A DNA stretch of 64,000 nt from a virus: the IMG/VR virus record IMGVR_UViG_3300050821_003452, positions 12,590 to 76,589 of that record. The stretch is one strand, 5' to 3'. A model generated the notes under the pieces. That model did not search any database and was not told where the DNA came from. It saw only the letters and a program-made list of their open reading frames with translations. A program made the position numbers and the translations under genes. Below are positions 1,350-17,332 of this stretch, in pieces. Position 1 is the first letter of the stretch. Each line of letters starts with the position of its first letter.

Positions 1350-1399
1350 GAATTTCCCTCTTTCGACTATAGTTGCTCTCTATAAACGCCGATTATGGC

Positions 1400-1900
1400 T
1401 TATTTATAGCGATACTCCGTATGAGCATTGTTGCGGATGCTGTGAAGAATTTTGGGCGCCTTGCGCTTCTTGATACCCCGACGCGAATTACGATTGGTCT
1501 TGTCTTTGCCGCCACCATGCTTGCCATGAGGCAACTCTGACTTGGAGAGCGGGTTGATCTTGTAGGAGCCCGGCTCAAAGTTGCCGCCGCGATCAAAGGA
1601 AACAATCTCGGTGCGCAGGGCGCCGGGGGTCTTGCCGCGAAGCCAGTATCTTTCTCCGACTTTAAGAAAGATGCGGCCAATGTGAATGCGAGCCTCGGTA
1701 ATGTGTGGAAGACGCCTTGCAGCCAAAGCCGCCGCACAACTTCCGGGCGCCTTGGTGCTCGCCTTGCGGCAATCCTCGCCGGTAATGTGAAGCATGATCG
1801 GCTTCTTGAGATTACGAACTGGAAGACCCTCGATGCGAGCAAATTCTTGCGACTTGGTAGGCATGGATTTTTTCCTCTTTGGTGAAACTGCCTCACCCAT
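1400..1900 (-). CDS. Hypothetical basic protein
   Basis: 166 aa ORF, divergent from the Cro-like gene. Confidence 0.6.
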   Translation of the reverse strand: MGEAVSPKRKKSMPTKSQEFARIEGLPVRNLKKPIMLHITGEDCRKASTKAPGSCAAALAARRLPHITEARIHIGRIFLKVGERYWLRGKTPGALRTEIVSFDRGGNFEPGSYKINPLSKSELPHGKHGGGKDKTNRNSRRGIKKRKAPKILHSIRNNAHTEYRYK

Positions 1901-1903
1901 TAA

Positions 1904-1937
1904 CCCATCTTGGGATGCATGTCAAGCACAATTTGGG
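1904..1937. promoter_or_regulatory. Two CCCA-N3-TGGG putative operator copies in a divergent promoter region
   Basis: CCCATCTTGGG 1904-1914; CACAATTTGGG 1927-1937 (1 mismatch). Confidence 0.5.
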
Positions 1938-2005
1938 TTGACCTTCAAACTTTTTTCTGTTAAGAGTTTTTTCTGGCAAAAATTCAAACGTCAAGGAAAA
2001 TCGAT

Positions 2006-2200
2006 ATGCGACTTCGCGGTTGGATGGACAAGACCAATATCGATGTTCTGGGCGCCGCTAAGCTCTTTGGTGTATCGGTTCATGCAGTCAAGAAGTGGCT
2101 ACGCGGTGATCGTATCCCAAGAGACAAGATGAAGGCTAAAATCAGCAAGCTTACGAAAGGTGCCGTTTCAGGCAATGATTGGGTTCCAAATGGCGATTGA
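2006..2200 (+). CDS. Cro/XRE-like HTH regulator
   Basis: 64 aa, AAKLFGVSVHAVKKWLRGDRIP helix-turn-helix, TKGAVSGNDW end typical of Cro-like proteins. Confidence 0.8.
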   Translation: MRLRGWMDKTNIDVLGAAKLFGVSVHAVKKWLRGDRIPRDKMKAKISKLTKGAVSGNDWVPNGD

Positions 2201-2657
2201 TAACTGGACAGCAGAAGAGAAGAGCATCTTGATCGAACACTGGGATAGTAACAAATCGGCCCAAGAAATCTCCAATATGCTTGGCACCAAGAGCAGAAAT
2301 GCGGTGATCGGGAAGGCTCACAGATTAGGCCTCGCCTCACGCAAGAAAGCTTCGCCGCCCCGGAACCCAACCAAGGTTCCGAAAGTTGCAAACGATAACA
2401 CCGAACCCAAGATGGCAAAGATCAGGACCATAAAGGCCAAGCCGCCTACCAAGCTCTCGGCAGAGGTTCCTCTTCCGACTGGTCAGCACCCTATTACCAT
2501 CATGGAGCTAACTTCCAACACTTGCCGGGCTATCGTGGGTCGCGGCTCCAATGGACTTGCTACATATTGTGGTGAGGAAGTGTTCCCCGGCAAGGTCTGG
2601 TGTCCCGGCCATTGCGTGCTGTACTTCAATCATGAACCACGGCGGCGCTCGGCATGA
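2190..2657 (+). CDS. gcrA: GcrA cell-cycle regulator homologue
   Basis: NWT..W....SAQEI...LG..SRNAVIGKAHRLGL N-domain; C-terminal IMELTSNTCRAIVG...YCG...WCPGH. Confidence 0.92.
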   Translation: MAIDNWTAEEKSILIEHWDSNKSAQEISNMLGTKSRNAVIGKAHRLGLASRKKASPPRNPTKVPKVANDNTEPKMAKIRTIKAKPPTKLSAEVPLPTGQHPITIMELTSNTCRAIVGRGSNGLATYCGEEVFPGKVWCPGHCVLYFNHEPRRRSA

Positions 2658-2824
2658 GTACCGGGTCGGTCTACGCTAAATATGAGCTTCCGGAACAAAA
2701 TCCGGAAGCTCACTTGATGTACCGGCCTGAGTTTAGTTTGGAGGAAATGGAAGCCGCTAGGCAGCTAATTAGTGCCTTGCGCCAAAGCCCACCTTGCGGA
2801 CCTTCCCGCCCTGACCCTGATTGA
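2654..2824 (+). CDS. 56-aa protein carrying the C-terminal tag (subtype A); absent from ORF track
   Basis: ATGA overlap with gcrA stop; MSTGSVYAKYELPEQNPEAHLMYRPEFSLEEMEAARQLISALRQ... Confidence 0.65.
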   Translation: MSTGSVYAKYELPEQNPEAHLMYRPEFSLEEMEAARQLISALRQSPPCGPSRPDPD

Positions 2825-3893
2825 ATAGGTCGGCAATAGAGTAAGTGCCCTTCTCGATAGGAATAGGCACGCCGGCAACCTTGGCCGCCGCCTGAGCTTC
2901 ATTCAGGTCCAACTCGCGGGTCCTGATCACGCCATAACAGCGCCCCGGCCTTAAAAGCGCTTCGTCCACCCGGCCAAAGTCAGCGGACCCCAGATTGGTA
3001 GTAAACACCAGTTTCTTGTTGGGAAGCTTGATAAGCCCGTCACTGACAGAGAGAAATCTGGCCATCATCTTATTGCCGTCATCCCGCTCGGAAAGGATGG
3101 TATCGGCGTCTTCGATGACCATGATCTCGGAGTTATCGTTAAAGAGAAATCCCTGAAAAACGGCGTCTTTCTCCATGAGTTTTTCGTCATAGATCACATG
3201 GGCAGAAAGCTTATGATCTATGATCAGGTGCCTGAGAAGCGTGGTTTTCCCGGTGCCGGGAGGCCCCGCAAGAAGCAGGACGCTGGCATCGGAAGCCAGA
3301 TATTTATCCATGAAATCATAGGGGTCGCCAAGGTCCGGGTAATATTCCGGATGCAGTTTGGTCTTGTTTGGTGGAAAGTAAATATCGCGGGTTTCGGTGC
3401 CGTGGCGCCCCTCATACCACCATTTGACCTTGGCCATTTTCTCGTTGGCAAAGGCGCTCTCGATCTCCTGCTTGATATCCAGTGCCACGTCTTTCTCGGC
3501 ATAGATATATGCCGTTATATCATGAACATCTTCGTTTTCTTCGCCATGGCGAGAGTTATTGTTGAGGATAACCAAGCGATCCGTACCCTCAATAACCACC
3601 AAGTTTGAATTAGGCATGGACAGGCGAGATTTATCTTCGCCCGCAATAACATGAACCTGATGATAGATATCGAGGGCCGAATTGGCTTTGCGCACCACGA
3701 TCTTTGTGGTTTCTGAATAGATATTAAGCAAGGTGCGCGCGATGAATTGCTGGATGATCTGGTTCTCCAGCGACGTATCAACAACCGTCGCATGCTCCAT
3801 CTGAAACGAATTGGTCTTGTCCATTTTCTTGCCTCTTGCCTTCAGGCTCTTTGCTGCCCTAAAATCATCCCAGTGAGTATTCCAGTGTGACAT
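2769..3893 (-). CDS. AAA+ ATPase (classical clade, BCS1-like)
   Basis: Walker A GPPGTGKT, Walker B MVIEDAD, SRH DEALLRPGR; start may be 3824. Confidence 0.88.
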   Translation of the reverse strand: MSHWNTHWDDFRAAKSLKARGKKMDKTNSFQMEHATVVDTSLENQIIQQFIARTLLNIYSETTKIVVRKANSALDIYHQVHVIAGEDKSRLSMPNSNLVVIEGTDRLVILNNNSRHGEENEDVHDITAYIYAEKDVALDIKQEIESAFANEKMAKVKWWYEGRHGTETRDIYFPPNKTKLHPEYYPDLGDPYDFMDKYLASDASVLLLAGPPGTGKTTLLRHLIIDHKLSAHVIYDEKLMEKDAVFQGFLFNDNSEIMVIEDADTILSERDDGNKMMARFLSVSDGLIKLPNKKLVFTTNLGSADFGRVDEALLRPGRCYGVIRTRELDLNEAQAAAKVAGVPIPIEKGTYSIADLFNQGQGGKVRKVGFGARH

Positions 3894-3926
3894 TTCTAGA
3901 CTGGATCAAATCTTTAGGGCTAATTT

Positions 3927-4286
3927 ATGACTAAGATCACGATGCATCTTCCATTTCCTCCAAGCACAAATTCATTGTGGCGTTCAAGCAGAGGGCGCGT
4001 TCATCTTAGCGCTAAGTATAAAGCATGGTTGAATACAGCCGGCTACGAATGGATCGCACAAAAGAAACATCAGCCTAATGGAATATCCGGGCATTTCAAA
4101 GCCATTTTAATACTTAACGAAGATATGCGCAGTAGAAAAGATTGCGATAACCACGCGAAAGCGCCTCTTGACCTTGCCAAACAGCACGGATTGATCGTGG
4201 ATGACAAACTTTGCGATGCAATTCTTATCAAGTGGGGCTCGCCAAAGAAAGCTCCATTAGGGGCCAGACTTGTTCTTAAGGGTTGA
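3927..4286 (+). CDS. rusA: RusA-like Holliday junction resolvase
   Basis: LPFPPSTNSLWR, RKDCDNHAKAPLD, IVDD motifs. Confidence 0.88.
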   Translation: MTKITMHLPFPPSTNSLWRSSRGRVHLSAKYKAWLNTAGYEWIAQKKHQPNGISGHFKAILILNEDMRSRKDCDNHAKAPLDLAKQHGLIVDDKLCDAILIKWGSPKKAPLGARLVLKG

Positions 4287-4559
4287 ATAGATTTCTTGCT
4301 CGAATAGAATATTCTCCAATTCTGTTTTTGGCTCTTTATCTTTCGGTAAATATTCAAAAGTGTCCGAAAGATAATCCCCGTCCATTTGCCCGGCCCGAAA
4401 TTCATTATCATCCCATTTAACATGAACCAGCCAATCCTTCATATACTCCGACCAATAAGTTTGTTTTGTAATTATGGCTATGGCTCCAGCCCTTGCCGCC
4501 ATCCCGCCCCGATCTACAGGCATGAAAACCCTATCACCCATTTCAAATATTTTCTTCAT
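4257..4559 (-). CDS. Small SH3/KOW-like protein with degenerate C-terminal tag
   Basis: FEMGDRV start; ends TELENILFEQEIYSTL. Confidence 0.7.
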   Translation of the reverse strand: MKKIFEMGDRVFMPVDRGGMAARAGAIAIITKQTYWSEYMKDWLVHVKWDDNEFRAGQMDGDYLSDTFEYLPKDKEPKTELENILFEQEIYSTLKNKSGP

Positions 4560-4891
4560 GACATACCCTCCAGTATTTCCATAGCCTGCATGGTTTCGTT
4601 ATATTCTTCATTTCCTACTTCTATCGGGGACGGTTCTTTGAATAATTCCACAAAATCTTGCCAATACTCGTTTTTATACTTTTTATCGGCCCATTCTACA
4701 GATGTAGCCCAATAAGTTGGCGGCTCATTCGGTACGGCGAACGGACCTACACTATGGCCCTTGCGACTAACATTTTCAGGGCGCCATTTTCGATTGGCGG
4801 TAACAATTCCAATGCCTTCGCGCTGGAGTTTATTTTGGGTATTATATACCCTGACCCTATCACCGATCTTGAATTTTGGTTCGTCGCTCAT
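4556..4891 (-). CDS. Small SH3/KOW-like protein with C-terminal tag (B)
   Basis: FKIGDRVRV start; ends GNEEYNETMQAMEILEGMS. Confidence 0.8.
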   Translation of the reverse strand: MSDEPKFKIGDRVRVYNTQNKLQREGIGIVTANRKWRPENVSRKGHSVGPFAVPNEPPTYWATSVEWADKKYKNEYWQDFVELFKEPSPIEVGNEEYNETMQAMEILEGMS

Positions 4892-4896
4892 GGTTG

Positions 4897-5141
4897 CCCA
4901 TTATGGGTATAATCTTGTTGGTTTCAAGGCATTGACACACAAGCTGTAGAGGCTTGCCAGCAAGATCAGGATGTGATTGGATTTGGACTTCCGGGCCAAT
5001 TGCCCGGTCCCCCCAAGAGGGAAAATAAAGGGGACCGGGCTTGAGGCTCAACACTAGTGCAGGAGCTTGCACCAATGGAACACGTCTGTTTTATAGACGC
5101 TATCTATAACAATATCAAGACCGGCATGGTTCCAATTTGGG
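4897..5141. promoter_or_regulatory. Divergent promoter region with CCCA-N3-TGGG copies
   Basis: CCCATTATGGG 4897-4907 followed by TATAAT; TCCAATTTGGG 5131-5141. Confidence 0.5.
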
Positions 5142-5148
5142 ACCGGCC

Positions 5149-5817
5149 ATGACATCCACCGAAACTCTCATTCAAGAACTGGTTAATCTTGGGTGCCCCG
5201 CAGCACGGGCCTTCACCCTTGTCAGTGAGGCTAGAACGCAATGGGCCGCTGAACCAAAACAGCGCTCCCGGCACTCCCTCGCCCAGTCGAAATATTATTT
5301 CAAGCGGAAGGCTAAACGATCATCCGATGATCATCCGATGATCAGTGATGATCATCATGATCACTCAAAAGAAAGTCTCCATACCTCTAAAGAAAACATA
5401 GGTTATACATATTCTGTTAACTCACTACGTTCGTTAACAGCACCGGAAGACGGTTGCGATCTGTTCAAAAAAGGTCTCCCGCTTCTATCTCAACTCACTG
5501 GAAACAAAAGCCATTCTTCATTGCGTTCACTGCTTGGGCGCTGGGTAAAGATGGTCGATGGCGATCATGTTCATGTTCTCGCCGCCATCGAAGACGCCGC
5601 CCGGGAACAGCCCATCGATCCAAGGGGCTGGATATTTGGCCGGCTCAACCAAATCGTTCGGGAACGCAATAAAAACAGGCCAGAAAGCTACCAGAAAAAG
5701 GAAAGCAACCATGCCGTTCTTGCCGCTGTCGGAGCCAAAATCAGAGCCCTCTACCCCGAAGACCAACCCCAAGACGGCCCACCACTGGCTAACGCAGCTT
5801 TTCGGCTTATTCCCTGA
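5149..5817 (+). CDS. Putative replication initiator (lambda O-like organisation)
   Basis: Internal iteron-like repeats; C-terminal SLLGRW...IDPRGWI domain; context with Cro and RusA. Confidence 0.55.
   Translation: MTSTETLIQELVNLGCPAARAFTLVSEARTQWAAEPKQRSRHSLAQSKYYFKRKAKRSSDDHPMISDDHHDHSKESLHTSKENIGYTYSVNSLRSLTAPEDGCDLFKKGLPLLSQLTGNKSHSSLRSLLGRWVKMVDGDHVHVLAAIEDAAREQPIDPRGWIFGRLNQIVRERNKNRPESYQKKESNHAVLAAVGAKIRALYPEDQPQDGPPLANAAFRLIP
5318..5364. repeat. GATGATCA-based tandem repeats, candidate replication origin iterons
   Basis: gatcatccgat gatcatccgat gatcagtgat gatcatcat gatcac. Confidence 0.6.
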
Positions 5818-6310
5818 TACGGCGAACCTAAAATCTGAAATGGTTCAAGCCATGGTATTGATATTTTCTCAATATCCAGAAAGCACGCTCAAGGTTATTG
5901 TTAATCCTCTGGAAGGCCTCCCTTCTAAATTCAAGTTCTTGCCCGGCGTCATGGAATTTGGGGCGGCCTGCGCGGAAATCTCTGCTGCGGTTGAGTTGCA
6001 AAAGCAGAGAATTGCCGACCATGAACGAAAGGTTTATTACCAAGCCCTGCCGGCCCCTGAGAGGCCCGCTGAGAAGGGTTGCTATGAGGGGCCTATCGAA
6101 CTGGTCAAACCCGGGGATATCCTCTCATGGGAGCGCCATGCTGAATACAGGGCCTATATGGAAGCCAAACATGGTTTTGACCCCGGGCGGGCAGTAGACC
6201 CCAAGAACTGGATGGATAGCGGTAGGCGCCCATTCGATACACTATCTGGCAAGCACAGTGCTAACCAAAATCAATCTACGGAAGAACCTAACCCCTTTGA
6301 TATTTCCTAA
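5711..6310 (+). CDS. Hypothetical protein, possible replication partner
   Basis: Overlaps the initiator-like gene; GGAAAG before ATG; acidic NPF C-terminus. Confidence 0.55.
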   Translation: MPFLPLSEPKSEPSTPKTNPKTAHHWLTQLFGLFPDTANLKSEMVQAMVLIFSQYPESTLKVIVNPLEGLPSKFKFLPGVMEFGAACAEISAAVELQKQRIADHERKVYYQALPAPERPAEKGCYEGPIELVKPGDILSWERHAEYRAYMEAKHGFDPGRAVDPKNWMDSGRRPFDTLSGKHSANQNQSTEEPNPFDIS

Positions 6311-6315
6311 TAATC

Positions 6316-6591
6316 CTATCCCTCGATAAGCTGCCTTCCTAGTTCGATTTCCTCTAATGAGAAATCTGGCTCGACCATAGGATAGTCATTTTTTTCTGGA
6401 ATAAGATCGTCTTCTGCATACCAAATTCTATCGATTGGAGGGGACATACCATCCCGGTTAACCAAAAAAATATCAGTACTGTCTTTTCTCTCTATTTTTT
6501 CAGTAATCTTGCCATGAATTTCATAATGCGGGGCATTGGAGTTATCTTCATATTCCCGCGTAACAATGACAACACGATCTCCCACCTTCAT
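6316..6591 (-). CDS. Small SH3/KOW-like protein with C-terminal tag (A)
   Basis: MKVGDRVVI; ends EPDFSLEEIELGRQLIEG. Confidence 0.8.
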   Translation of the reverse strand: MKVGDRVVIVTREYEDNSNAPHYEIHGKITEKIERKDSTDIFLVNRDGMSPPIDRIWYAEDDLIPEKNDYPMVEPDFSLEEIELGRQLIEG

Positions 6592-6965
6592 GTCATGTCC
6601 TCCATGATTTTCTGGGCTTGTTCTATTTCCGACAACTCAAAAGTATTGCCGGCGTTATTAGTATTTGTAACCATCTTTTTACGCTTGCGATAAAACGTGG
6701 ATTTATGCATCCATGTTTCTGGTGTAAGGTCCCTTCCTGCGCCACTCATTTCAAGGCAATACAATGGGCCTTTCTGATAAAGGTCAAAAGGGTCAGAAGT
6801 GTCAAATCTGCCATATTTGTTTCGGCGTAACATCGCATAGTGCCCAAGATAATGGTCATTATGAAACTCTGGCACCCAGATATCATTGGCCTTATACAAT
6901 GCCTTTATGAGCTTTATATCTCTCGGCAAAAATGGCCGGACGTGGTATTCTACTTTGTCAGACAC
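6588..6965 (-). CDS. Hypothetical protein with C-terminal tag (A)
   Basis: Ends NTFELSEIEQAQKIMEDMT. Confidence 0.75.
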   Translation of the reverse strand: MSDKVEYHVRPFLPRDIKLIKALYKANDIWVPEFHNDHYLGHYAMLRRNKYGRFDTSDPFDLYQKGPLYCLEMSGAGRDLTPETWMHKSTFYRKRKKMVTNTNNAGNTFELSEIEQAQKIMEDMT

Positions 6966-7269
6966 CTTGCATTTCCTTTATGTAGAATTCTGCTAATTCC
7001 ATATCGTCCAAGTCGAAGTCCGTTTCCATGACTTGCTGATAAGCCAGAGGCTCAACATGGGCCTCGCGAAACCAGAATTTGGGATACTCTCTTCTTCCTA
7101 CGATTACCGGATTGTCGAATTCAACCTGAAAATCATATCCAGCCGACGCTATAGCCCTGACAGTGCCGAATGGCTCTTTAGTGAAGAGCATAGGCAGATT
7201 ACCATCGCCATTCGCAGTAGGAACGGTTCTGATCAGAATTCTAACCCTATCACCTTCTTTGTAGGTCAT
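6958..7269 (-). CDS. Small SH3/KOW-like protein with C-terminal tag (A)
   Basis: YKEGDRVRI; ends ETDFDLDDMELAEFYIKEMQGV. Confidence 0.8.
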   Translation of the reverse strand: MTYKEGDRVRILIRTVPTANGDGNLPMLFTKEPFGTVRAIASAGYDFQVEFDNPVIVGRREYPKFWFREAHVEPLAYQQVMETDFDLDDMELAEFYIKEMQGV

Positions 7270-8798: not shown

Positions 8799-9062
8799 CT
8801 CTTGCGCTTCGTGGATTTCATCTAGCGTGAAATCAGGTTCAGGTGGCTTTAGTTTGATTATCTCCAGGTCTTCCTCTGGATAAATAAATCCATCATGATG
8901 GGGGTGTATCTCTTCCACATGCGGCCAAATAACGCGACGCCAAGTTCTTTTACTGTTGTTTGGCTTGGTGTCTAATGCCGTTATTCTTCCAGTTTCTCCC
9001 TTGGATTGGTGCAACCAGTGACTTAGATTACCTTTGATTTTTACCAGATCACCTATTTTCAT
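8781..9062 (-). CDS. Small SH3/KOW-like protein with C-terminal tag (A)
   Basis: MKIGDLVKI after GGAGGG RBS; ends EPDFTLDEIHEAQELIDGI. Confidence 0.8.
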   Translation of the reverse strand: MKIGDLVKIKGNLSHWLHQSKGETGRITALDTKPNNSKRTWRRVIWPHVEEIHPHHDGFIYPEEDLEIIKLKPPEPDFTLDEIHEAQELIDGI

Positions 9063-9120
9063 CTTTATCCCTCCATAATTGCTTAACACAGTCCCCCGTA
9101 AGGGACTGGCCTTAAGCAAT
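9063..9120 (-). promoter_or_regulatory. Intergenic stem-loop element E0 (variant lacking the alternative strand)
   Basis: TGA ATTGCTTAA GGC CAGTCCCT TACG GGGGACTG TG TTAAGCAAT ...GGAGGG...ATG. Confidence 0.6.
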
Positions 9121-9201
9121 TCAGAATGGCGCCGTGATGTATCCGGCTATGTAGCCAGCGCAGAATAACTCCACGCAGAAAACCAGACGGAAAAATATCA
9201 T
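9121..9201 (-). CDS. 26-aa hydrophobic peptide
   Basis: TAATG coupling to the 9201 ORF; MIFFRLVFCVELFCAGYIAGYITAPF. Confidence 0.45.
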   Translation of the reverse strand: MIFFRLVFCVELFCAGYIAGYITAPF

Positions 9202-9608
9202 TAATGCACCGTATGGCCGGCGTGGCCATCCTCTTCGTTATGGTCCGGATCACCGCACTTGCCGAAAGCCGCTTTGGCCAAATCGGAAAGCTCGTCCGGA
9301 TCGGTTTCGGCCTGAGCCATACAGGCCAGCATGAAGGGAATATAAGCCTCTTCAGGCACGCCAATGGCTTTCAGCACTTCATGGGATTTATCTACACCCC
9401 ACTTGGCATGTTCCCCAAGTTTGTGATGCTTGTGGAAATGCTCGGCCTTTTCATGCAGAAACGGCACGATGCAAAGATATTTTGCAAGAGCCTTTTCAGC
9501 ATCGTCGCCGGGGAAAACAGCAAGAAGGTGTTCTTTCTCAAGGACAACACCGTTGACCTTGAATTCCTTCTCGGTTTCCTCGACCTTGATCTTGATCATT
9601 CCAAACAT
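9201..9608 (-). CDS. Hypothetical His-rich protein
   Basis: 135 aa, AGAGGGAA RBS. Confidence 0.7.
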   Translation of the reverse strand: MFGMIKIKVEETEKEFKVNGVVLEKEHLLAVFPGDDAEKALAKYLCIVPFLHEKAEHFHKHHKLGEHAKWGVDKSHEVLKAIGVPEEAYIPFMLACMAQAETDPDELSDLAKAAFGKCGDPDHNEEDGHAGHTVH

Positions 9609-9680
9609 GATTTCCCTCTCTCGATTGAAGCATAAGCGCTTCGTGCTGCGCTATGGACTAGCGTAGGACGAAAGGCTTGC
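9609..9680 (-). promoter_or_regulatory. Bistable intergenic RNA element E1 (partly decayed)
   Basis: CCTTTCG TC CTACGCTAG TCCA TAGCGCAG CA CGAAGCG CTTAT GCTTC ..GAGAGAGGGAAATC ATG. Confidence 0.6.
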
Positions 9681-9710
9681 TTATATTTACACCCAAATTG
9701 GGGAAAATCT

Positions 9711-10268
9711 ATGTCTAAGACGTGCTCACGATGTTCTCAAACGAAACTACTGACGGAGTTTTATGCCCGTGGATCATGGTGCAGGACTTGCAACAAGACT
9801 ATATGCAAAGCGTACTATGAAGCTCGGAAGCGACGGAATGGGAAGCTGGTAAGGCCGCGCAATCCGATCATTAATGGTCTCAAAAATTGTCGCCAGTGTA
9901 ATACTGTAAAGCTCATATCAGAATTTTGGAAACACGGTAAATTTCCCGGCGCGTACTGTAAGATTTGCGCTAGTGAGGCAGGTAAGGCGTGGTATAAAGA
10001 GAATAAGCGTAAGGATAAGGATTGGAAACTGCGTCGCACTTACGGCCTCACCATTGATCAGTACGAACAAATATTGGCTCGACAGAATTATAAATGTGCT
10101 ATTTGCAAAGTTTCTAATCCGAAAGGTCGGAATGGCTTCAACGTAGATCATTGTCACGAAACTAGTAAAATTCGCGGTTTACTTTGTTCCAATTGTAACA
10201 TTGGAATAGGAAATCTTCAACACGACCCGGATATTCTCCGGGCCGCATTGAAGTATCTCGAAGTCTAG
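9711..10268 (+). CDS. Endonuclease VII-like HNH (putative homing endonuclease)
   Basis: YGLT..QYE.....Q...CAIC...VDHCH.T.KIRGLLCSNCN.GIG; antisense to the surrounding operon. Confidence 0.9.
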   Translation: MSKTCSRCSQTKLLTEFYARGSWCRTCNKTICKAYYEARKRRNGKLVRPRNPIINGLKNCRQCNTVKLISEFWKHGKFPGAYCKICASEAGKAWYKENKRKDKDWKLRRTYGLTIDQYEQILARQNYKCAICKVSNPKGRNGFNVDHCHETSKIRGLLCSNCNIGIGNLQHDPDILRAALKYLEV

Positions 10269-11431
10269 TAATCAACCGTTCGCCCAAAGGGCGCGCGGAG
10301 CTTGTTGTGGGCAGCGAAGTTCACAAATACGACGGGAAAGGGCGGTTCCTTGCCAAAGGAACCCGTCTCTAAATCTGTGAAAAAGATCATGCCAACTGAT
10401 CCGGCATATTCTTCGTTCACAAGCTTCATGAGACTTTCAAAGTGCGTCCCTCCGCCCCCGCGAGGCTTCCATTCAATGACACCCTGCGAGTTGGTTACGA
10501 CCGAAATTGACTTCGGTTCAGTGTCCACGGCAATAAGCGTGGCTTGGTTGATAATATTCTCGTCCAAAACCGCTGACGCCTCTGTCTTCATGGCTTTCAA
10601 CATATCATCACTCACAGAGCCAGATACGTCAAATACCAACAGAAGATTGTAGATATTGTCATCGGCATAACCCGGCATAATCGGGTCCTGCCTACGACGA
10701 TTTACGCGGGTCCAAGAACGACTTTCGCGTGATTTGGCATCGCGCGACATATCCCGGATAATATCCCGCCAATTCAGTTTCTCGACTGGCAATAATTCTT
10801 CTACCAATCGCTGAATGTTGGCCGGCATATTGCCGGCCTTCTTGGCCTTGTCAGAGGCGTTTGCTACCGCGCGTGACCAATCCTTGGCTGCCTGATCGGC
10901 CTCTTCCTGATCTTCCGGAGAGGGGTCTTCCATGCCGCCCGGTTGGTTAGCACCGTTTTCACCATCGCTTTGGCCTTTGCCGCCGCCTTTGCCACCACCA
11001 CCTTTCTTGCTTTCCTGTTCTTCCAGAAGCTCATAAATCTCTTCCGCAGCTTTATTAGGATAAAGCCCATCGCCTTTCATTAACTCGGGATGTTGTGGAA
11101 AATACTGATGAACCAATGGCCTTACTGAAAAGTCAGTGGCTTGGTTCCACTTGTCCTTGTCGCGGGACTTCCTGCGGGGAACATGCGCCAATGCAAGGTG
11201 CATGATCACTTCAAGAATATCGCCCTCAATGTACTGATCATTTTCCTTGACGTATTCCGGATTGAAAAAGATGTTGATGCCGTTAGTCCAGATTGCGGGC
11301 CTACGGTCACTTTCTTCAAGCCGGGCATTGAACAGAAGGGACGCAAAGAAAGGATTGCGCCGCGCGATACGTTCGCGTGCCACCAATACCCGTCGCATTG
11401 CATCCGTATATTTGGTATTCCAGTTCCACAT
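10265..11431 (-). CDS. VWA-domain protein with DUF2201-like N-terminal region
   Basis: MIDAS-like FDVSGSVS, GGGGTHF, FFTDLE; NPFFASLL...WTNG..IFFNP. Confidence 0.85.
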   Translation of the reverse strand: MWNWNTKYTDAMRRVLVARERIARRNPFFASLLFNARLEESDRRPAIWTNGINIFFNPEYVKENDQYIEGDILEVIMHLALAHVPRRKSRDKDKWNQATDFSVRPLVHQYFPQHPELMKGDGLYPNKAAEEIYELLEEQESKKGGGGKGGGKGQSDGENGANQPGGMEDPSPEDQEEADQAAKDWSRAVANASDKAKKAGNMPANIQRLVEELLPVEKLNWRDIIRDMSRDAKSRESRSWTRVNRRRQDPIMPGYADDNIYNLLLVFDVSGSVSDDMLKAMKTEASAVLDENIINQATLIAVDTEPKSISVVTNSQGVIEWKPRGGGGTHFESLMKLVNEEYAGSVGMIFFTDLETGSFGKEPPFPVVFVNFAAHNKLRAPFGRTVDY

Positions 11432-11503
11432 GATTTGTTCCCTCTTTATGAAGCATGTCGCTTCGTGCTGCCCTAGATTGCTCTAGGGCAGTGTCGAAAC
11501 GTC
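11432..11503 (-). promoter_or_regulatory. Bistable intergenic RNA element E2
   Basis: TAA GA CGTTTCG ACA CTGCCCTAGA GCAA TCTAGGGCAG CA CGAAGCG ACAT GCTTC ATAAAGAGGGAA. Confidence 0.75.
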
Positions 11504-12526
11504 TTACTTCTTATCAACCGCTTCCTGTACCAAGCTCGCCAAGTCTTTGTTGGACTTGAGACTGGTATCGCGCGCCATGGCTTCGTGTGCGGCCATGGAA
11601 CGGATATCCGGAGTAAGCCGCGAAAGATACTCGGCAAACTTGGAGGCGTTCTTGAGGTCGATGTTCTTGGCCACGGCAGACGCCACAACATACTGATAGT
11701 GTGGATCAGTCGGGACCTTGGCCTTGCTCGGATTAGCCAGAATATCGCCCATCTTGGGAAGTCCCGCCGCAAGGTTATTGATGAACGTCATAAACTGACG
11801 CGAAAAGCCGTCACCAAGAATAGCCTGAGCATTGTTCTCAAGAACAGCCTTGGAGCTATCCATTGAGAGGTTTTTCAGGACCTTGTTGAAGCTTTCCAAA
11901 GACCTTGGCGTCGGAAATGCCGGATCAGTCTGCGATACCTTGTGAATATCGTCAGGCCGAAGTGTCAAATACGCGACAAGGCGCGGGTCCCAACCCCAGA
12001 TTTTCATCTTTTCGATCAAACCCGGAGCGTCGGGTTCCACACTGACATGCGCCATGCGGTTCTCAAGAGGCTTCAGCATCTTGTTATCGCCGCCGCCGTC
12101 AGTCCGGGTATTGCTTGCCAGCAAAACGCGGTTTTTGTTGGGCAACGGAAAGCCGCCCAAACCACGATCCAGCACAAGGCTATAAGCCATCTGCTGAAGC
12201 TGTACACTCGCATGTCCGAACTCGTCATAGAACATCACGTGCATATTGCCGTCTTCCTGCGGAATGAATGCAGGCCGCGTCCAATAAGTCGCACGATTGT
12301 CCTTGTCGATAATCGGCATGCCAGTGCCATCCACAATATCCTTTGTGGAAAGCCGGGTATCATGCAAGATCGAAGTGCCGTATTCTTTGACTATGGCTGG
12401 CAAGACTTCGTTCTTGATGATAGAAGACTTGCCCACACCAGTCGGGCCATAGATCATTACCGGAACATCGGCAAAGACCAAAGGCAAGACGGTATCTGCA
12501 AGCTTGGTTATTTTCACCTTAAGCAT
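11504..12526 (-). CDS. MoxR-like AAA+ ATPase
   Basis: GPTGVGKS, MFYDEF, LASN, LENR, FPTPRS; adjacent to the VWA gene. Confidence 0.88.
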   Translation of the reverse strand: MLKVKITKLADTVLPLVFADVPVMIYGPTGVGKSSIIKNEVLPAIVKEYGTSILHDTRLSTKDIVDGTGMPIIDKDNRATYWTRPAFIPQEDGNMHVMFYDEFGHASVQLQQMAYSLVLDRGLGGFPLPNKNRVLLASNTRTDGGGDNKMLKPLENRMAHVSVEPDAPGLIEKMKIWGWDPRLVAYLTLRPDDIHKVSQTDPAFPTPRSLESFNKVLKNLSMDSSKAVLENNAQAILGDGFSRQFMTFINNLAAGLPKMGDILANPSKAKVPTDPHYQYVVASAVAKNIDLKNASKFAEYLSRLTPDIRSMAAHEAMARDTSLKSNKDLASLVQEAVDKK

Positions 12527-12607
12527 GTTTGATTTTCCCTCTCGTCTGAGCAACATTGCTCACCAATGCGCTATATGGCTAGTACAGCGCATGGCGTGAA
12601 CAGTGAT
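12527..12607 (-). promoter_or_regulatory. Bistable intergenic RNA element E3
   Basis: TAA ATCAC TGTTCAC GCC ATGCGCTGTA CTAGCCA TATAGCGCAT TG GTGAGCA ATGTT GCTCA GACGAGAGGGAA. Confidence 0.75.
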
Positions 12608-12799
12608 TTACGCATACCTGCTATGCGTTATTGAGGTATCAAGACTGTATCCATGAGACCACACTTTTAGCGTTGTGCCGTCCGTAAAGGTAAGGATAAT
12701 TGTCTCGTTATTCCCGTTGGTATTGTTGGCAGTGTCCATTGCCATGTATTCGGCATGAGAAATGGTCTTGCCAACAAGCTCAAAGATATTCACTGGCAT
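12608..12799 (-). CDS. Hypothetical protein
   Basis: MPVNIFELVGKTI...ILTFTDGT. Confidence 0.6.
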   Translation of the reverse strand: MPVNIFELVGKTISHAEYMAMDTANNTNGNNETIILTFTDGTTLKVWSHGYSLDTSITHSRYA

Positions 12800-13736
12800 C
12801 TTCCACCATCGAAGTGATTTCCTTGTCCCGCAAATCAAGACTTGCGAGCGTGGCCATGACTTCGTTAGCTACTTCCAGAGCTTTTGGCTTGCCATAAGGC
12901 GCAACAGGATCGTTGAACCTTTCAGGCCTGCGGCGCCAGTAGTCTGCGCTGAAATAAGTCAACCGGCCTAAATCAGTGATGACTTTCTTGATTTGCTTGT
13001 TCTCAGTCAGATTAAGCTTCTCAAGAATTTTTTGAGTATCCCTGATATTATCGATCAAGCTATCATGAATTTTGCCAAGTAATTCGCCCGTAGAAGGCTC
13101 TACTTTGACGTTTTCAAGCTTGTCAATAAAGGCCTGCACGACTTCTCTTGCGCGCCTTACCATGTCATGAGAAGCATCAACTAGCCGTTCTTCGATTTCA
13201 GCCTCAATGGAAGCTTTCGCTTCGCTTGCTGCCTCTTTCGAAATTTCAGCCATCAAATGCCCACTATCAGGCATAGGCCAATAACTAACCTTTGCCGTGA
13301 ATAGCGCCTTAGCCTCGTCTTGGCTAGGATATTGCCGGCTATCGAATAACGGTCCTAAATCCCTTTCACTGGCTGCAACAAGTGCAGGATAGTAAAAGAT
13401 ATATTCGGAGCGCGCGTCTTCTAAATCTTTCAGCGCGGCATTTACGTCATAGCGAAAAGCCTCCAGTGTTTTCACTGGAATCAATCGCATGTTTTCATTT
13501 CCCCATGGCAGGGTATAACGGTAGACGACTTCGCGAACGCGCTGGCTTGCCGCTAATATCCTCTTGACCGTTTTATGATTGCGGTCGATCAGATAAGTAG
13601 AGGCTTGCGCACGCTTGTCAGATACATGATATGTATTCTGAACCAACGTTGAAGCTTTACTATTCTTGCGTTGGCCAAGCAATCCGCCGTTGGAAATGGT
13701 GACAGATACCAGCATTGCTTTCTTAGTGATATCCAT
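12780..13736 (-). CDS. Hypothetical helical protein upstream of the AAA/VWA pair
   Basis: 318 aa, TLPW...RLIP and LGPLFD..QYPS motifs; strong RBS. Confidence 0.75.
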   Translation of the reverse strand: MDITKKAMLVSVTISNGGLLGQRKNSKASTLVQNTYHVSDKRAQASTYLIDRNHKTVKRILAASQRVREVVYRYTLPWGNENMRLIPVKTLEAFRYDVNAALKDLEDARSEYIFYYPALVAASERDLGPLFDSRQYPSQDEAKALFTAKVSYWPMPDSGHLMAEISKEAASEAKASIEAEIEERLVDASHDMVRRAREVVQAFIDKLENVKVEPSTGELLGKIHDSLIDNIRDTQKILEKLNLTENKQIKKVITDLGRLTYFSADYWRRRPERFNDPVAPYGKPKALEVANEVMATLASLDLRDKEITSMVEDASEYL

Positions 13737-13803
13737 TTGATCCCTCTCTCTATTAGAGCTTAATGCTCTATGCTGCACTGTTGCCAGTGCAGAGGTAGAA
13801 CAT
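13737..13803 (-). promoter_or_regulatory. Bistable intergenic RNA element E4
   Basis: TGA ATGTTCTA CCT CTGCACTG GCAA CAGTGCAG CA TAGAGCAT TAA GCTCTA ATAGAGAGAGGGA. Confidence 0.8.
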
Positions 13804-14022
13804 TCAGGAGTTAAGCCAATCCTTGGCCGCTTTCATGGCTTCTTTATAATTGACTACGGCAATGGTATTGCCGGCTATCGCCGTAGGATAAATGGGTTTC
13901 CCGTTTTCGTCGCGGAAATAGATTTCCCAACCTTGACCATAATGGCGAACGCCAACGTGGCCTTTTGATCCCTCAAAACTATACCACTGGTTGGCAAGTT
14001 TCTTGCGTGCTATCTTATTCAT
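13804..14022 (-). CDS. Hypothetical protein
   Basis: 72 aa, RBS, flanked by elements. Confidence 0.7.
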   Translation of the reverse strand: MNKIARKKLANQWYSFEGSKGHVGVRHYGQGWEIYFRDENGKPIYPTAIAGNTIAVVNYKEAMKAAKDWLNS

Positions 14023-14087
14023 GTGCTTCCCTCTCTATTGAAGCTTAATGCTTCTCACTACCGCTCGTAAGCGGTAGGACAGAAACA
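14023..14087 (-). promoter_or_regulatory. Bistable intergenic RNA element E5
   Basis: TAA TGTTTCT GTC CTACCGCT TACG AGCGGTAG TG AGAAGCA TTAA GCTTC AATAGAGAGGGAA. Confidence 0.8.
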
Positions 14088-14390
14088 TTAGAGCGTGGCA
14101 GTTTTGCCTTTACTGCCGTAGAATTGCAGACTTTCTTGATCCCGCAGAATTGTCTCATATTCGACGGTATCAATTCCCGTTGCCGCCAAAAACCGGAACG
14201 TATCGAAATTGTCGTTTGTGCTTCGTAGATAGTCTGCAAACAAACGGGCAATTTCGAGGCGTTTATCAGGGCTAACGCGCGAGATAATGCCGGCGATATA
14301 TGCAAAGTGTCGATGTTGCATAAATCCGGATTTTATCACTCTTGCGCTAACCCTGTCCTTGGCTAGTGCCGATTTAGCTGATAACGGCAT
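14088..14390 (-). CDS. Hypothetical protein
   Basis: MPLSAK...RHFAYIAGII...FADYL..TN.NFD..RFLAA. Confidence 0.65.
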   Translation of the reverse strand: MPLSAKSALAKDRVSARVIKSGFMQHRHFAYIAGIISRVSPDKRLEIARLFADYLRSTNDNFDTFRFLAATGIDTVEYETILRDQESLQFYGSKGKTATL

Positions 14391-14580
14391 TTTTCTTTGC
14401 CTTTCTATAAGCCACAATGGCTGCATAAATCTTTTGCTCAGGTTCATGCGTCATTTCAGCGATGTTCTTGACGGTTTCATGTAACGCAAGGGCAATGCCT
14501 TTGTTTCTGCCAAGCCTAAACGAGGCATAAACGCCAAGGCCATAAACTAGGCCGATCATGAGATAATTTTCTATTGCCAT
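14374..14580 (-). CDS. Small membrane protein
   Basis: N-terminal TM segment, AGAGGGAA RBS. Confidence 0.6.
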   Translation of the reverse strand: MAIENYLMIGLVYGLGVYASFRLGRNKGIALALHETVKNIAEMTHEPEQKIYAAIVAYRKAKKNAVIS

Positions 14581-14588
14581 GGTTCCCT

Positions 14589-14795
14589 CTATTCGTCGTT
14601 TGGAGTTTCGATTAAATCTGGCAAATCGGGCGGAATAGCTGCGGCAATTTCAAGTTTGCCTAACAGCCAGTCCCAATATCCAAGGCGCGTATTGTCCTCA
14701 GATACGTCCCGCTGCCAGTCGGCAACCGGAAATTTATCGTTCTCTTTCCAGATGCCGCCGTGTTCGTCTGCCAGCAAATAAGCTTCCGGGGACAT
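14589..14795 (-). CDS. Hypothetical protein
   Basis: FPVADWQ..V....TRLGYWDW; TAATG coupling. Confidence 0.65.
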   Translation of the reverse strand: MSPEAYLLADEHGGIWKENDKFPVADWQRDVSEDNTRLGYWDWLLGKLEIAAAIPPDLPDLIETPNDE

Positions 14796-15052
14796 TATTT
14801 TGCCCTCTTGTTATCTGCCCGATAACCTTTTCGGTTATAAGCATATGAAGCTTTCGGCGCAGTGAAAGTCACAACCTTAGGCGTAGGCTGCCCGACATGC
14901 TGGCGCGCGTCTTTAAGTGTCTTATGCGCGACAATCTGCGAGGCATCGCCAATGCTGCTTTCCCGCACGGTTTGATACCGCACTGTTTCGCCGCGAATAT
15001 TGGAAACCTTTTGGATTGCATGACCGTTGTAACGGTCGATTGTTCTTAACAT
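14795..15052 (-). CDS. Hypothetical protein
   Basis: 85 aa, strong RBS. Confidence 0.65.
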   Translation of the reverse strand: MLRTIDRYNGHAIQKVSNIRGETVRYQTVRESSIGDASQIVAHKTLKDARQHVGQPTPKVVTFTAPKASYAYNRKGYRADNKRAK

Positions 15053-15126
15053 GGTTATTCCCTCTCTCTATGGTGAAGCAAAATGCTTCGCAATGTAGTA
15101 GGATTAGCTACTACATGCCGAAACAT
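15053..15126 (-). promoter_or_regulatory. Bistable intergenic RNA element E6
   Basis: TGA ATGTTTCG GC ATGTAGTAG CTAATC CTACTACAT TG CGAAGCAT TTT GCTTC ACCATAGAGAGAGGGAA. Confidence 0.8.
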
Positions 15127-15519
15127 TCAAGCGTTGGCAAATTCAATCCAGTCCGATACATTGGGCGCGTATTCGTGATGATAGTCGAAATTGAAATTAT
15201 CTAATTCCGCCTCAGGAATAAGATAATCTGCGATATTATCACGCCAAGCTATTTCGTAATCATCCCATTTGCGAGAGATTAAATATTCCAGATGCCTGTT
15301 ATTGTCCCAAGCCTCATTCCATGTTCGGTCCCTCCATCCGCCGCGCTTGATAACCATCATTTCCGAATAAACCATGCTGGCATTATTTGCCCAGTTTCGG
15401 GAATACGGATTGCCAACCATAGGCAAGGGATGCTTGTATTTGCCAAGCCGTGATGGCATTGTCAGGCCGGTTTTGAATTTATACGGCCAAGCTTGAAAGC
15501 CTGCTTTCTTCTTTGCCAT
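15127..15519 (-). CDS. Hypothetical protein
   Basis: MAKKKAGFQAW start after RBS. Confidence 0.65.
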   Translation of the reverse strand: MAKKKAGFQAWPYKFKTGLTMPSRLGKYKHPLPMVGNPYSRNWANNASMVYSEMMVIKRGGWRDRTWNEAWDNNRHLEYLISRKWDDYEIAWRDNIADYLIPEAELDNFNFDYHHEYAPNVSDWIEFANA

Positions 15520-15587
15520 GATATTTTCCCTCTCAATGAAGCTTGAGTGCTTCCCAATGCGGCGCGAACGCCGCACGGCGGAAACAT
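15520..15587 (-). promoter_or_regulatory. Bistable intergenic RNA element E7
   Basis: TGA ATGTTTCC GCCG TGCGGCG TTCG CGCCGCA TTG GGAAGCAC TCAA GCTTC ATTGAGAGGGAA. Confidence 0.8.
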
Positions 15588-15698
15588 TCATTTGGCTTTG
15601 TAAGTGATTTGCACATTTTGACCGATAAGCCAGTGTCCAATTCGCAAAAATTGGACCCCTAGCCAAATACGGTAATTGCGCTTAAGCCAGATATTCAT
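15588..15698 (-). CDS. 36-aa peptide
   Basis: ATGA overlap with the upstream gene; stop abuts E7; MNIWLKRNYRIWLGVQFLRIGHWLIGQ... Confidence 0.5.
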   Translation of the reverse strand: MNIWLKRNYRIWLGVQFLRIGHWLIGQNVQITYKAK

Positions 15699-15865
15699 GG
15701 GCGCATAATTTCGAAGTGCCGATAACCTTCGCGCCAGCGCCGTGCTTTCCAAGTGAGTGGATTGTACGGATTGGCGTGAATTGAATATCCCTTGCCGGCC
15801 ATAACGAAACCTGTTTCGAAAGCTTCGTCGCGACCTGCGATGGCTGTTGCTAGACTGTAGATCAT
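15695..15865 (-). CDS. Small protein (AF..G...NPY...W..G motif)
   Basis: MIYSLATA start after RBS. Confidence 0.6.
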   Translation of the reverse strand: MIYSLATAIAGRDEAFETGFVMAGKGYSIHANPYNPLTWKARRWREGYRHFEIMRP

Positions 15866-15937
15866 GATATTTTCCCTCTCGATATAGAGCACAATGCTCT
15901 AGACTGTGCTGGAATAACCAGCACAGGGTTAGAACAT
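15866..15937 (-). promoter_or_regulatory. Bistable intergenic RNA element E8
   Basis: TAA ATGTTCTA ACC CTGTGCTGG TTATT CCAGCACAG TC TAGAGCAT TGT GCTCTA TATCGAGAGGGAA. Confidence 0.8.
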
Positions 15938-16000
15938 TTATCGCCGTTTATGCTTGGCAAATAACGACTGGGAGGCGAAAAACCTGAAAACATATTTCAT
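15938..16000 (-). CDS. Possible 20-aa peptide
   Basis: MKYVFRFFASQSLFAKHKRR; stop abuts E8. Confidence 0.35.
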   Translation of the reverse strand: MKYVFRFFASQSLFAKHKRR

Positions 16001-16004
16001 GGTT

Positions 16005-16226
16005 TTATGCCCAATGGTCGATATTAGTGACCCACATATTGCGCGGCGAAGTCTCGCCCTTGCGGCGATATAACTTGACGTTATATGGCCGGCCGTCATC
16101 GTGGAAAAATTCGAAGATATCGAATGTATTCACCGATTTCGGGATAGGACCATGCAACGGGACAAGCGGCATGCTCCAATCGGTATTTGCGGGGCGATCC
16201 TGATCATATTCGCTTTGCTCTGACAT
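16005..16226 (-). CDS. Hypothetical protein
   Basis: 73 aa, AGAGGGAA RBS. Confidence 0.6.
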   Translation of the reverse strand: MSEQSEYDQDRPANTDWSMPLVPLHGPIPKSVNTFDIFEFFHDDGRPYNVKLYRRKGETSPRNMWVTNIDHWA

Positions 16227-16298
16227 GAATATTTCCCTCTATTTAGAGCGTCCTAAATGGACTAACCCGCTAGGTGTTCTAATACCTAGCGGAATAAA

Positions 16299-16574
16299 TT
16301 AAGCAGCAACCATTTCGCGATAATTCGCGGCGGTTTTGAACGCTTGTGCCGTGGCGCGCATGTAATTTTTGTACACACTCGGCATAACTAGTTCCGCAAT
16401 CTGCCAGTGATAGTCGGCATAATGCGCAACGCGTTCTTGGTAGGCTTCCCAAGCTGGAATGCGGATGCTTTCATAAACATCCTGTTGAGCGGGCGAAAGC
16501 AAATCGGCGGCCAACTCGCCCCAATTTACTTCTGCCAAGTCATCCAGCGCCAAGGCTTCAGAAAGTGTAAGCAT
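16299..16574 (-). CDS. Hypothetical protein, first gene of the leftward operon
   Basis: 91 aa, AGAGGGAA RBS. Confidence 0.65.
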   Translation of the reverse strand: MLTLSEALALDDLAEVNWGELAADLLSPAQQDVYESIRIPAWEAYQERVAHYADYHWQIAELVMPSVYKNYMRATAQAFKTAANYREMVAA

Positions 16575-17332
16575 GGAATGTTCCCTCTATTGATTGACCG
16601 TAAATGGTCTAACAGCCGTCGAGGGATAGCCTTTCAACCCTAGAAAGCCTTGTGGGCGATCAGGCGGAATAGGCTATCCCCCTAGGCCAAACGTAAGAAA
16701 ACCTCCCAGCGGGCTTTGTAAGCCGTTTGAGGGGCATTCTAGAAAGGGAAAGGGTGCAGTCTTTAAGACTGCTATCATGCTAAGATGCAATGCTTTGATT
16801 TTTATCCCCTAATCAACACTCTCGACCGTTCACGGCTTGCTAGGGTTTATTCGTGGAATTACCAAATGCGCGCGATGGCGTTCTTTTGGATTTGCCCGAT
16901 ACCTACTGATTAGAGGGGATAGCGCGGTTTTTCCCTTAGGTTACCCTCTGATTGCGTCCCCGCGCTGTTTCCGGACCTTGATCCGGGCTTTGGGTTGGCT
17001 GGCACTGTAAGGTGCCTCATACTCTCGCCTAAGCTAACTGTCACCGTTGGCTTGCCGTCTTATGATCCTAGAGCGCTCCGTAGTCGGGAAGCACGTTAAC
17101 GGTTTCTAGCTTGGCAATGGAACCGGGCAATTTATGAAGTCTTGCCAAGACTTGGCTAGGGCTTGATCGGCCTAGCGAGTGAAGTGGGTTGGTATGTGAT
17201 CTCCTAGTGAATTAAACTAAGGCAAGACATACTCTCTTGCCAGCCATTGAGAAGTCATGGAAATGCATGGCTGCTATGCAAAAACGCATAACCTGCTATA
17301 ATCGACGCGTCGAATATGGAGTGGGCAGGGAC

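Follow-up and report, generated by a model that had tools for sequence, protein, structure and literature searches.

We analysed a 64,000-nucleotide stretch of viral DNA (hereafter the window), which covers positions 12590–76589 of a 76,589-bp IMG/VR virus record, rated complete and assembled from soil, with respect to an RNA element repeated between the genes of a leftward (minus-strand) operon. No cultured close relatives of this phage were found by megablast or blastn; its large terminase has its closest cultured matches, at 28–37% identity, in phages of Roseobacter, Paracoccus, Rhizobium, and Erythrobacter, among others. The operon comprises a triad of genes at 10265–13736, encoding a DUF3150-like protein (318 aa; the name is taken from the annotation of a cyanophage match), a MoxR-like ATPase (340 aa), and a VWA protein (388 aa), surrounded by small genes. 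It contains 16 promoter-like sites, none of them tied to elements, versus 15.8 expected, and 17 terminator-like sites versus 12.3 ± 3.6; this lack of enrichment fits one long transcript.

The consensus of 34 copies (alignment A1), obtained with RNAalifold, has a 9-bp lower stem, a 3×2 internal loop, and an 8-bp upper stem, with compensatory changes in 13 of 17 pairs, and was converted to a covariance model, R1. Searched with filters off against both strands of the whole genome (the window and L003, 76.7 kb), R1 yields nine matches, all on the minus strand at 9068–15939 of the window, with scores from 79 to 32 bits (E from 1e-20 to 3e-7). The remaining matches are only three weak plus-strand echoes of the same hairpins (E 0.03–1). 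The fold of each copy is more stable than its own shuffles, z ranging from −2.2 to −6.2. Read on the minus strand, eight junctions show the same order: a stop codon, strand a, the internal loop, a GC-rich hairpin, strand b, a short loop, strand a', AGAGGGA as the ribosome-binding site (RBS) with its Shine–Dalgarno sequence (SD), and ATG (Table 1). The upper-stem sequences of different copies are unrelated, and so are the C-termini of the open reading frames (ORFs) upstream of the elements. A preliminary description of this DNA had listed nine copies in the leftward operon, one of them, at 9063, a variant lacking a'; the search returns exactly these nine, and the match at 9068–9121 has no a'. 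The sites given there are right, although each position is one base off from the start codons, which begin between 9062 and 15865. Two dimensions had to be corrected, as the lower helix has 9 bp rather than 6 and takes in part of the stop codon, and the apical loop has 4–7 nt (12 nt in the copy at 12535–12605) rather than 2–3.

Table 1. Copies of the element and two related leaders in the window (all positions are those of the window; z, fold stability relative to shuffles)
Feature	Position	Strand	R1 score (bits)	Fold (kcal/mol)	z	a	Upper stem	b	a'	SD from	ATG	Remarks
Element 1	15874..15939	-	49.5	-29	-5.3	15938-15930	15926-15919/15911-15904	15901-15893 (AGAGC type)	15890-15886 (GCTCT)	15878	15865	
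Element 2	15526..15589	-	68.4		-3.2	15588-15580	15576-15569/15564-15557	15554-15546	15542-15538 (GCTTC)	15532	15519	
Element 3	15063..15128	-	53.4		-4.6	15127-15119	15116-15109/15100-15093	15090-15082	15079-15075	15064	15052	stop of 130-aa ORF within lower stem
Element 4	14028..14090	-	79.4 (E 1e-20)		-4.7	14089-14081	14077-14070/14065-14058	14055-14047	14044-14040	14033	14022	top score
Element 5	13743..13805	-	55.4		-3.5	13804-13796	13792-13785/13780-13773	13770-13762 (AGAGC type)	13759-13755 (GCTCT)	13746	13736	upstream of DUF3150-like 318-aa gene
Element 6	12535..12605	-	41.7		-2.7	12604-12596	12592-12585/12573-12566	12563-12555 (TGAGC type)	12551-12547 (GCTCA)	12541	12526	upstream of MoxR-like ATPase gene; stop 5 nt upstream of a
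Element 7	11438..11504	-	49		-6.2	11503-11495	11491-11484/11475-11468	11465-11457	11454-11450	11444	11431	between MoxR and VWA genes
Element 8	9615..9678	-	32.2		-2.2	9677-9669 (degenerate)	9666-9659/9653-9646	9643-9635	9631-9627	9618	9608	no ORF ends in element; antisense endonuclease gene upstream
Element 9 (variant)	9068..9121	-	38.1		-4.4				absent		9062	10-bp lower stem ATTGCTTAA / TTAAGCAAT; RBS GGAGGGA 3 nt past helix; upstream stop ~70 nt away
Related leader	16224..16300	-		-24.8	-4.5							large hairpin, constitutive small hairpin (GTCC/GGAC), RBS, ATG
Related leader, first gene of run	16572..16690	-		-48.2	-4.7							long hairpin, constitutive small hairpin (GACC/GGTC), RBS, ATG

The element is not confined to this phage. 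A scan of IMG/VR with an IUPAC pattern gave 15 loci from 11 contigs, and R1, applied to related loci (228 kb), found 116 copies (alignment A2) in 11 other uncultured phage contigs. Five genomes searched whole contain 9–18 R1 matches each, clustered in a single 7–16-kb operon and lying on one strand, save for one weak opposite-strand hairpin echo. A second IMG/VR pattern added seven further contigs, mostly with single low-scoring copies of uncertain status, while a scan of genome contigs for prophage or host copies gave only four single matches of 17–24 bits, which look like chance. All carriers of the element have the DUF3150-like/MoxR ATPase/VWA triad, at 24–75% identity, and no other genes are common to all of them. 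The triad is also found, without the element, in Synechococcus phage MinM2, and matches of the DUF3150-like protein are confined to three cyanophage records, all of them element-free. At the MoxR/VWA junction of related phages elements are present, with upper stems different from that of element 7.

Correlated changes are observed for two helices that share strand b. The long hairpin (a:b and the upper stem) is paired in 97.7% of 1882 cells, with 538 double-change cells versus 148 in shuffles; in controls, with the partner slid by 1–3 columns, just 28–49% of cells are paired. The b:a' helix is paired in 98.1% of cells, all five of its pairs covary, and 32 double-change cells are seen versus 4.0 in shuffles; this test is unbiased, since the b:a' columns lie outside the structure of the model. 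In the window, the three strands a/b/a' form three compensated sets (GTTTC/GAAGC/GCTTC, GTTCT/AGAGC/GCTCT, and GTTCA/TGAGC/GCTCA), and the family as a whole has eight b variants with exactly complementary a' (GAAGC, TGAGC, AGAGC, GGAGC, GAAAC, GAAGT, TGAAC, and GATGC). Strand a tolerates wobble: at one conserved pair of the lower stem, 92 of the 110 copies of the family have U.G, 15 have C-G, and three have U-A. In the upper stem, G.U pairs outnumber A.C oppositions by 20 to 2, and every copy lies on the sense strand; the excess of G.U over A.C means that selection acts on the sense-strand transcript. The three-way covariation and the RNA-level structure claimed by the preliminary description are thereby confirmed; with the covariance model that it had proposed and counts of double changes compared with shuffles, both a:b and b:a' are supported. 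Both helices are real and mutually exclusive, b pairing with a or with a', never with both.

A search of Rfam 15, likewise proposed there, gave no match to a described motif. At the gathering threshold the window contains only two tRNA genes (RF00005, 32676–32747 and 33696–33780, minus strand, 57.5 and 44.9 bits), and at E ≤ 10 the region 8900–16800 yields only two chance-level matches.

The two helices differ strongly in stability. Pairing of a with b is favoured over b:a' by 7.0 ± 2.2 kcal/mol (103 copies), and in the free RNA the median pairing probability P(a:b) is 0.97 and the median P(b:a') is 0.01; if strand a is masked, the median P(b:a') becomes 0.96. As the long hairpin is strongly favoured and b:a' is rare until a is masked, formation of the small hairpin requires a to be covered or removed. 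The term "bistable" used in the preliminary description does not hold in the thermodynamic sense, given the preference for the long hairpin; in the folding model the element behaves as sequential, not as bistable at equilibrium.

We suggest, giving the idea about an even chance, that the element acts as a cut-and-cap signal, marking sites between cistrons at which a long polycistronic message is cut and the pieces are capped. In the primary transcript, strand a, together with the last bases of the stop codon, would pair with b, stacking the 9-bp lower stem, the non-pairing 3×2 loop, and the GC-rich upper stem of 8–10 bp into a helix of about two turns. A double-strand-specific endonuclease would then cut at or beside the 3' side of the internal loop. 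The likeliest enzyme is RNase III of the host, as the phage has no such gene of its own: searches of the window phage detected no phage RNA polymerase, no RNase III, and no tyrosine recombinase, and phage-encoded RNase III is absent from the five genomes. After the cut, the upstream cistron would end in the stable upper hairpin, a shield against 3' exonucleases, and the freed strand b would pair with a'. The resulting hairpin of 5 bp, no more than about 2 nt from the new 5' end and 4–5 nt upstream of the SD, would shield the downstream cistron against 5'-end-dependent decay.

The geometry of the family is compatible with these steps. The helix measures 17.2 ± 2.1 bp. Its internal loop is of the 3×2 type in 64 of 108 copies; across the family, a purine–purine opposition (GG 72, AA 28) in the loop is followed by a pyrimidine–pyrimidine one (UU 43, CC 20, CU 13) and one extra base; the loop closes to a Watson–Crick pair in only one of 109 copies. 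The stop codon lies within the lower stem in 91 of 110 copies, and the SD is found a median of 4 nt past a'. When a cut was modelled one base into the loop on its 3' side, no more than two 5' bases were left unpaired in 98 of 108 downstream pieces; the median P(b:a') is 0.95, and the isolated hairpin has a stability of −6.4 ± 1.1 kcal/mol. The two leaders at 16224–16300 and 16572–16690 have no strand a and give no R1 match (E ≤ 1); as they combine a constitutive small hairpin with the same RBS, the small hairpin beside the RBS looks like the end state. It is known that 5'-terminal stem-loops, such as that of the ompA leader, protect bacterial mRNAs. The small hairpin of the element resembles these stabilising structures in its distance of about 2 nt from the presumed 5' end and its position just upstream of the SD, but differs from them in being masked in the precursor, so that it would appear only after the cut.

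The position of a' follows the same logic, as a' goes with the RBS rather than with b. In two copies (L004:7211 and L010:8177), an extra hairpin of 28–34 nt is inserted between b and a', and a' still adjoins the RBS; in the copy at L004:11220, a' is absent and there is no RBS or start codon downstream. Insertions are also seen elsewhere in the structure: L007:7235–7338 and L010:7677–7768 have a 30–40-nt insertion in the apical loop, with both stems and a' kept.

The closest known counterparts are the RNase III signals of phage T7. The ideal substrate of the Escherichia coli enzyme has 22 bp, or two helical turns, internal loops confine cutting to one strand, leaving stabilising 3' hairpins, and the T7 early precursor carries five such signals (PMC3867540); one T7 signal, R1.1, comprises 60 nt and forms a hairpin whose asymmetric loop is of the 4/5 type (PMC6121014). 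When the T7 junctions R0.5, R1, R1.3, and R0.3 were folded for comparison, the first three were found to have the layout of the element. Both systems consist of repeated intercistronic hairpins of about 60 nt in an early polycistronic region, with two stems around an asymmetric internal loop and about two helical turns in total. The resemblance extends to details in R0.5, where the stop codon of gene 0.4 lies in a 9-bp lower stem, followed by the internal loop and a 10-bp upper stem, and the RBS is located about 10 nt past the helix. The differences are also clear. T7 conserves the upper stem and the loop while its lower stem varies, and the element does the reverse; T7 has no a', and its four sites, after the same modelled cut, give no defined 5' hairpin. 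Cleavage is proven in T7, whereas that of the element is a prediction. We file the element, by analogy, as one that works like the T7 RNase III signals, outside their sequence family, and count it as a new variant because of its built-in 5'-capping strand and its reversed pattern of conservation. The first model of the preliminary description, an RNase III-like site followed by b:a' refolding, fits best, with a geometry like that of T7 R0.5, R1, and R1.3 and a modelled cut that frees b:a', its cleavage step standing as a prediction.

Several observations weigh against the cut-and-cap interpretation. The element and the T7 sites have no sequence in common, and R1, run with filters off over T7 positions 400–7000, gives one match of 5.5 bits (E 4), i.e., no sequence homology. 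Five copies lack a' despite a downstream RBS (9068 in the window, L016:8278, L011:1533, L017:6261, and L011:3207). Compared with its E. coli counterpart, RNase III of Sinorhizobium meliloti favours longer duplexes, and its cleavage of R1.1 is atypical (PMC6121014), hence the enzyme of a rhizobial host might not act on a 17-bp helix. Finally, the lower stem is strongly conserved, although RNase III has little sequence specificity; the three-way complementarity alone could explain this conservation.

The same features may be read as a docking site, with the lower stem and the loop recognised not by RNase III but by a phage or host RNA-binding protein or another nuclease (RNase E-type or Cas6-like), an explanation that we consider unlikely. 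The non-Watson–Crick oppositions of the loop, kept in 108 of 109 copies, would suit such a reader, as would the persistence of TGTTTC and GAAGCA across phages whose shared proteins are just 24–31% identical, and the functions of many operon genes are unassigned. However, one genome has three types of b (GAAGC, AGAGC, and TGAGC), each with compensated partners, which speaks against recognition of particular bases in the stem; the operon proteins that were tested showed neither an RNA-binding nor a nuclease domain; and the genes common to all carriers, i.e., the triad, are the ones that MinM2 has without the element.

The second model of the preliminary description was a translational switch. 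Here, a ribosome terminating on the stop codon of the lower stem covers a, and b captures a', which is otherwise weakly paired with the SD; upstream translation would thereby be coupled to initiation on the next gene, or to exposure of the long helix to a nuclease. The stop geometry fits: in 91 of 110 copies the stop codon starts 4 or 5 nt ahead of the G of TGTTTC, and, given the size of the ribosome footprint, a ribosome that terminates there would occlude a without disrupting the upper hairpin. The effect of masking a on b:a', given above, is as the model demands, and the SD is predicted to become more accessible, its unpaired fraction going from 0.45 to 0.58 (Wilcoxon p 9e-8). For the free tail, pairing between a' and the SD region has a mean probability of 0.51, and replacement of a' by A residues changes the unpaired fraction of the SD from 0.47 to 0.63. 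The effect on the SD is small, though, and comes from helices of about 0 kcal/mol; the SD is largely open in both states. Further, copies with a' of the GCTCA, GCTCT, or GCTCC type retain the RBS type of the other copies of their genome, and 17 copies without an ORF (of at least 40 codons) ending in the stem keep 8.7 of nine a:b pairs and, in 15 of 17 cases, all five b:a' pairs, as good as other copies. Strand a is altogether missing from the two leaders whose small hairpin is constitutive. An anti-SD switch operated by the ribosome is thus only weakly supported, and we regard it as possible but improbable, both for the capture of a' and for the coupling. We are equally doubtful of a broader form, in which the junction would sense translation, the terminating ribosome flipping the RNA from the nuclease-sensitive long helix to the two-hairpin form, so that upstream translation would set cistron separation, decay, or downstream initiation junction by junction. 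The switch may also coexist with processing.

Another explanation starts from gene order, as the elements might be cassette boundaries or a recombination module, similar to the promoter-early stem-loop (PeSL) cassettes of phage T4 or to integron attC sites, and the RNA folds would be secondary to the shuffling of small early genes. The small genes around the triad do differ in order between relatives, while the elements stay at the junctions; e.g., homologues of the 135-aa, 130-aa, and 119-aa genes are found in different orders in L016, L015, and L007. Three copies in L009 (7954–8016, 8422–8484, and 9275–9337) have identical upper stems and flank different genes, suggesting that elements have recently been duplicated or have undergone gene conversion with one another. 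In PeSL cassettes of T4-type phages, an early promoter is joined to a stem-loop, and both these and the element are repeated structured spacers that bound small shuffled early genes; the element, however, has no promoter part, and its variable upper stem leaves no room for one. Folded attC sites have a conserved lower stem, an unpaired spacer, and a variable top. The element shares with them this conserved basal helix, unpaired central spacer, and variable top, as well as a position at the 3' end of each cassette and strand-specific folding, but it lacks the GTTRRRY core, and the coupling of a' to the RBS has no attC counterpart. An IntI-type partner, i.e., a tyrosine recombinase (PF00589), is absent from the five genomes, the control being positive in 14 of 14 reference genomes. 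The G.U versus A.C asymmetry implies selection on the sense-strand transcript, and the fixed place of a' beside the RBS points to a role in RNA that a recombination module leaves unexplained; shuffling, in turn, can be a by-product of repeated sequence. Taken together, we hold this explanation to be very improbable, more so than the docking site.

Five other interpretations were rejected. N4-type hairpin promoters of a virion RNA polymerase were considered because the MoxR ATPase matches N4-like phages at about 29% identity, but no large RNA polymerase gene is present, and the largest ORF (1106 aa) has no PDB or RNA polymerase match; PF00940 was not found in the search for the enzyme of such promoters, a search whose control also gave no match. 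A separate promoter in each element disagrees with the unrelated upper stems and with the lack of enrichment of promoter-like sites. An intrinsic terminator can be dismissed, given an AU-rich basal stem and the lack of a U tract after it. As for a self-cleaving ribozyme, Rfam ribozymes are absent from the window and from 229 kb of related loci, and bases of the loop and stem vary between copies. A mini-ORF starting from the ATG in strand a is not retained either, as this ATG becomes TTG, GTG, or ACG by covariation with b.

The surroundings of the elements provide several further observations. At 9711–10268, a plus-strand ORF of 185 aa contains an Endonuclease VII domain (PF02945, E 1.2e-23). 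It is located inside the minus-strand operon but antisense to it, separating the VWA gene from element 8, and overlaps the VWA stop codon at its 3' end. The same junction in L004 has an element without a' and, about 300 nt further on, a full element that no ORF precedes. The arrangement suggests that a free-standing endonuclease gene can insert here. The ORFs ending in elements 1 and 2 (15940–16000 and 15590–15694, minus strand) are doubtful, one being either a 20-codon ATG ORF or a 53-aa overlapping frame and the other a 54-aa TTG frame; judging from the sequence, the stop codon here may belong to the element and not to a real gene. Between the first minus-strand gene and the plus-strand gene starting at 17237, about 640 bases (16600–17236) contain no convincing ORF and no Rfam match, and probably hold divergent promoters.

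In L015, a related 73.7-kb phage, the minus strand at 2440–2547 matches Rfam family RF02496 (Atu_At1, a Rhizobiales small RNA; 83.4 bits, gathering threshold 60). The match occupies the position of the long hairpin within the element operon and is followed by a small GGAGC/GCTCC hairpin and then by an RBS. The presence of this Atu_At1-like RNA hints that other structured RNAs can take the slot of the element, and the family to which it belongs is a clue to a Rhizobiales host, or at least a weak hint of an alphaproteobacterial one.

If the cut-and-cap interpretation is correct, one long early transcript would be converted to separately stable monocistronic mRNAs, each with a hairpin at both ends, by a single 63-nt module with a built-in refolding step, a solution not described for T7. 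With more than 100 copies, two covarying exclusive helices, and preserved loop mismatches, the family is a clean natural system in which to study how RNase III selects its sites outside E. coli, how RNA folds sequentially, and how 5' ends are protected, and the element is a compact candidate part for synthetic operons. For the phages themselves, the elements mark the junctions at which related genomes exchange small early genes.

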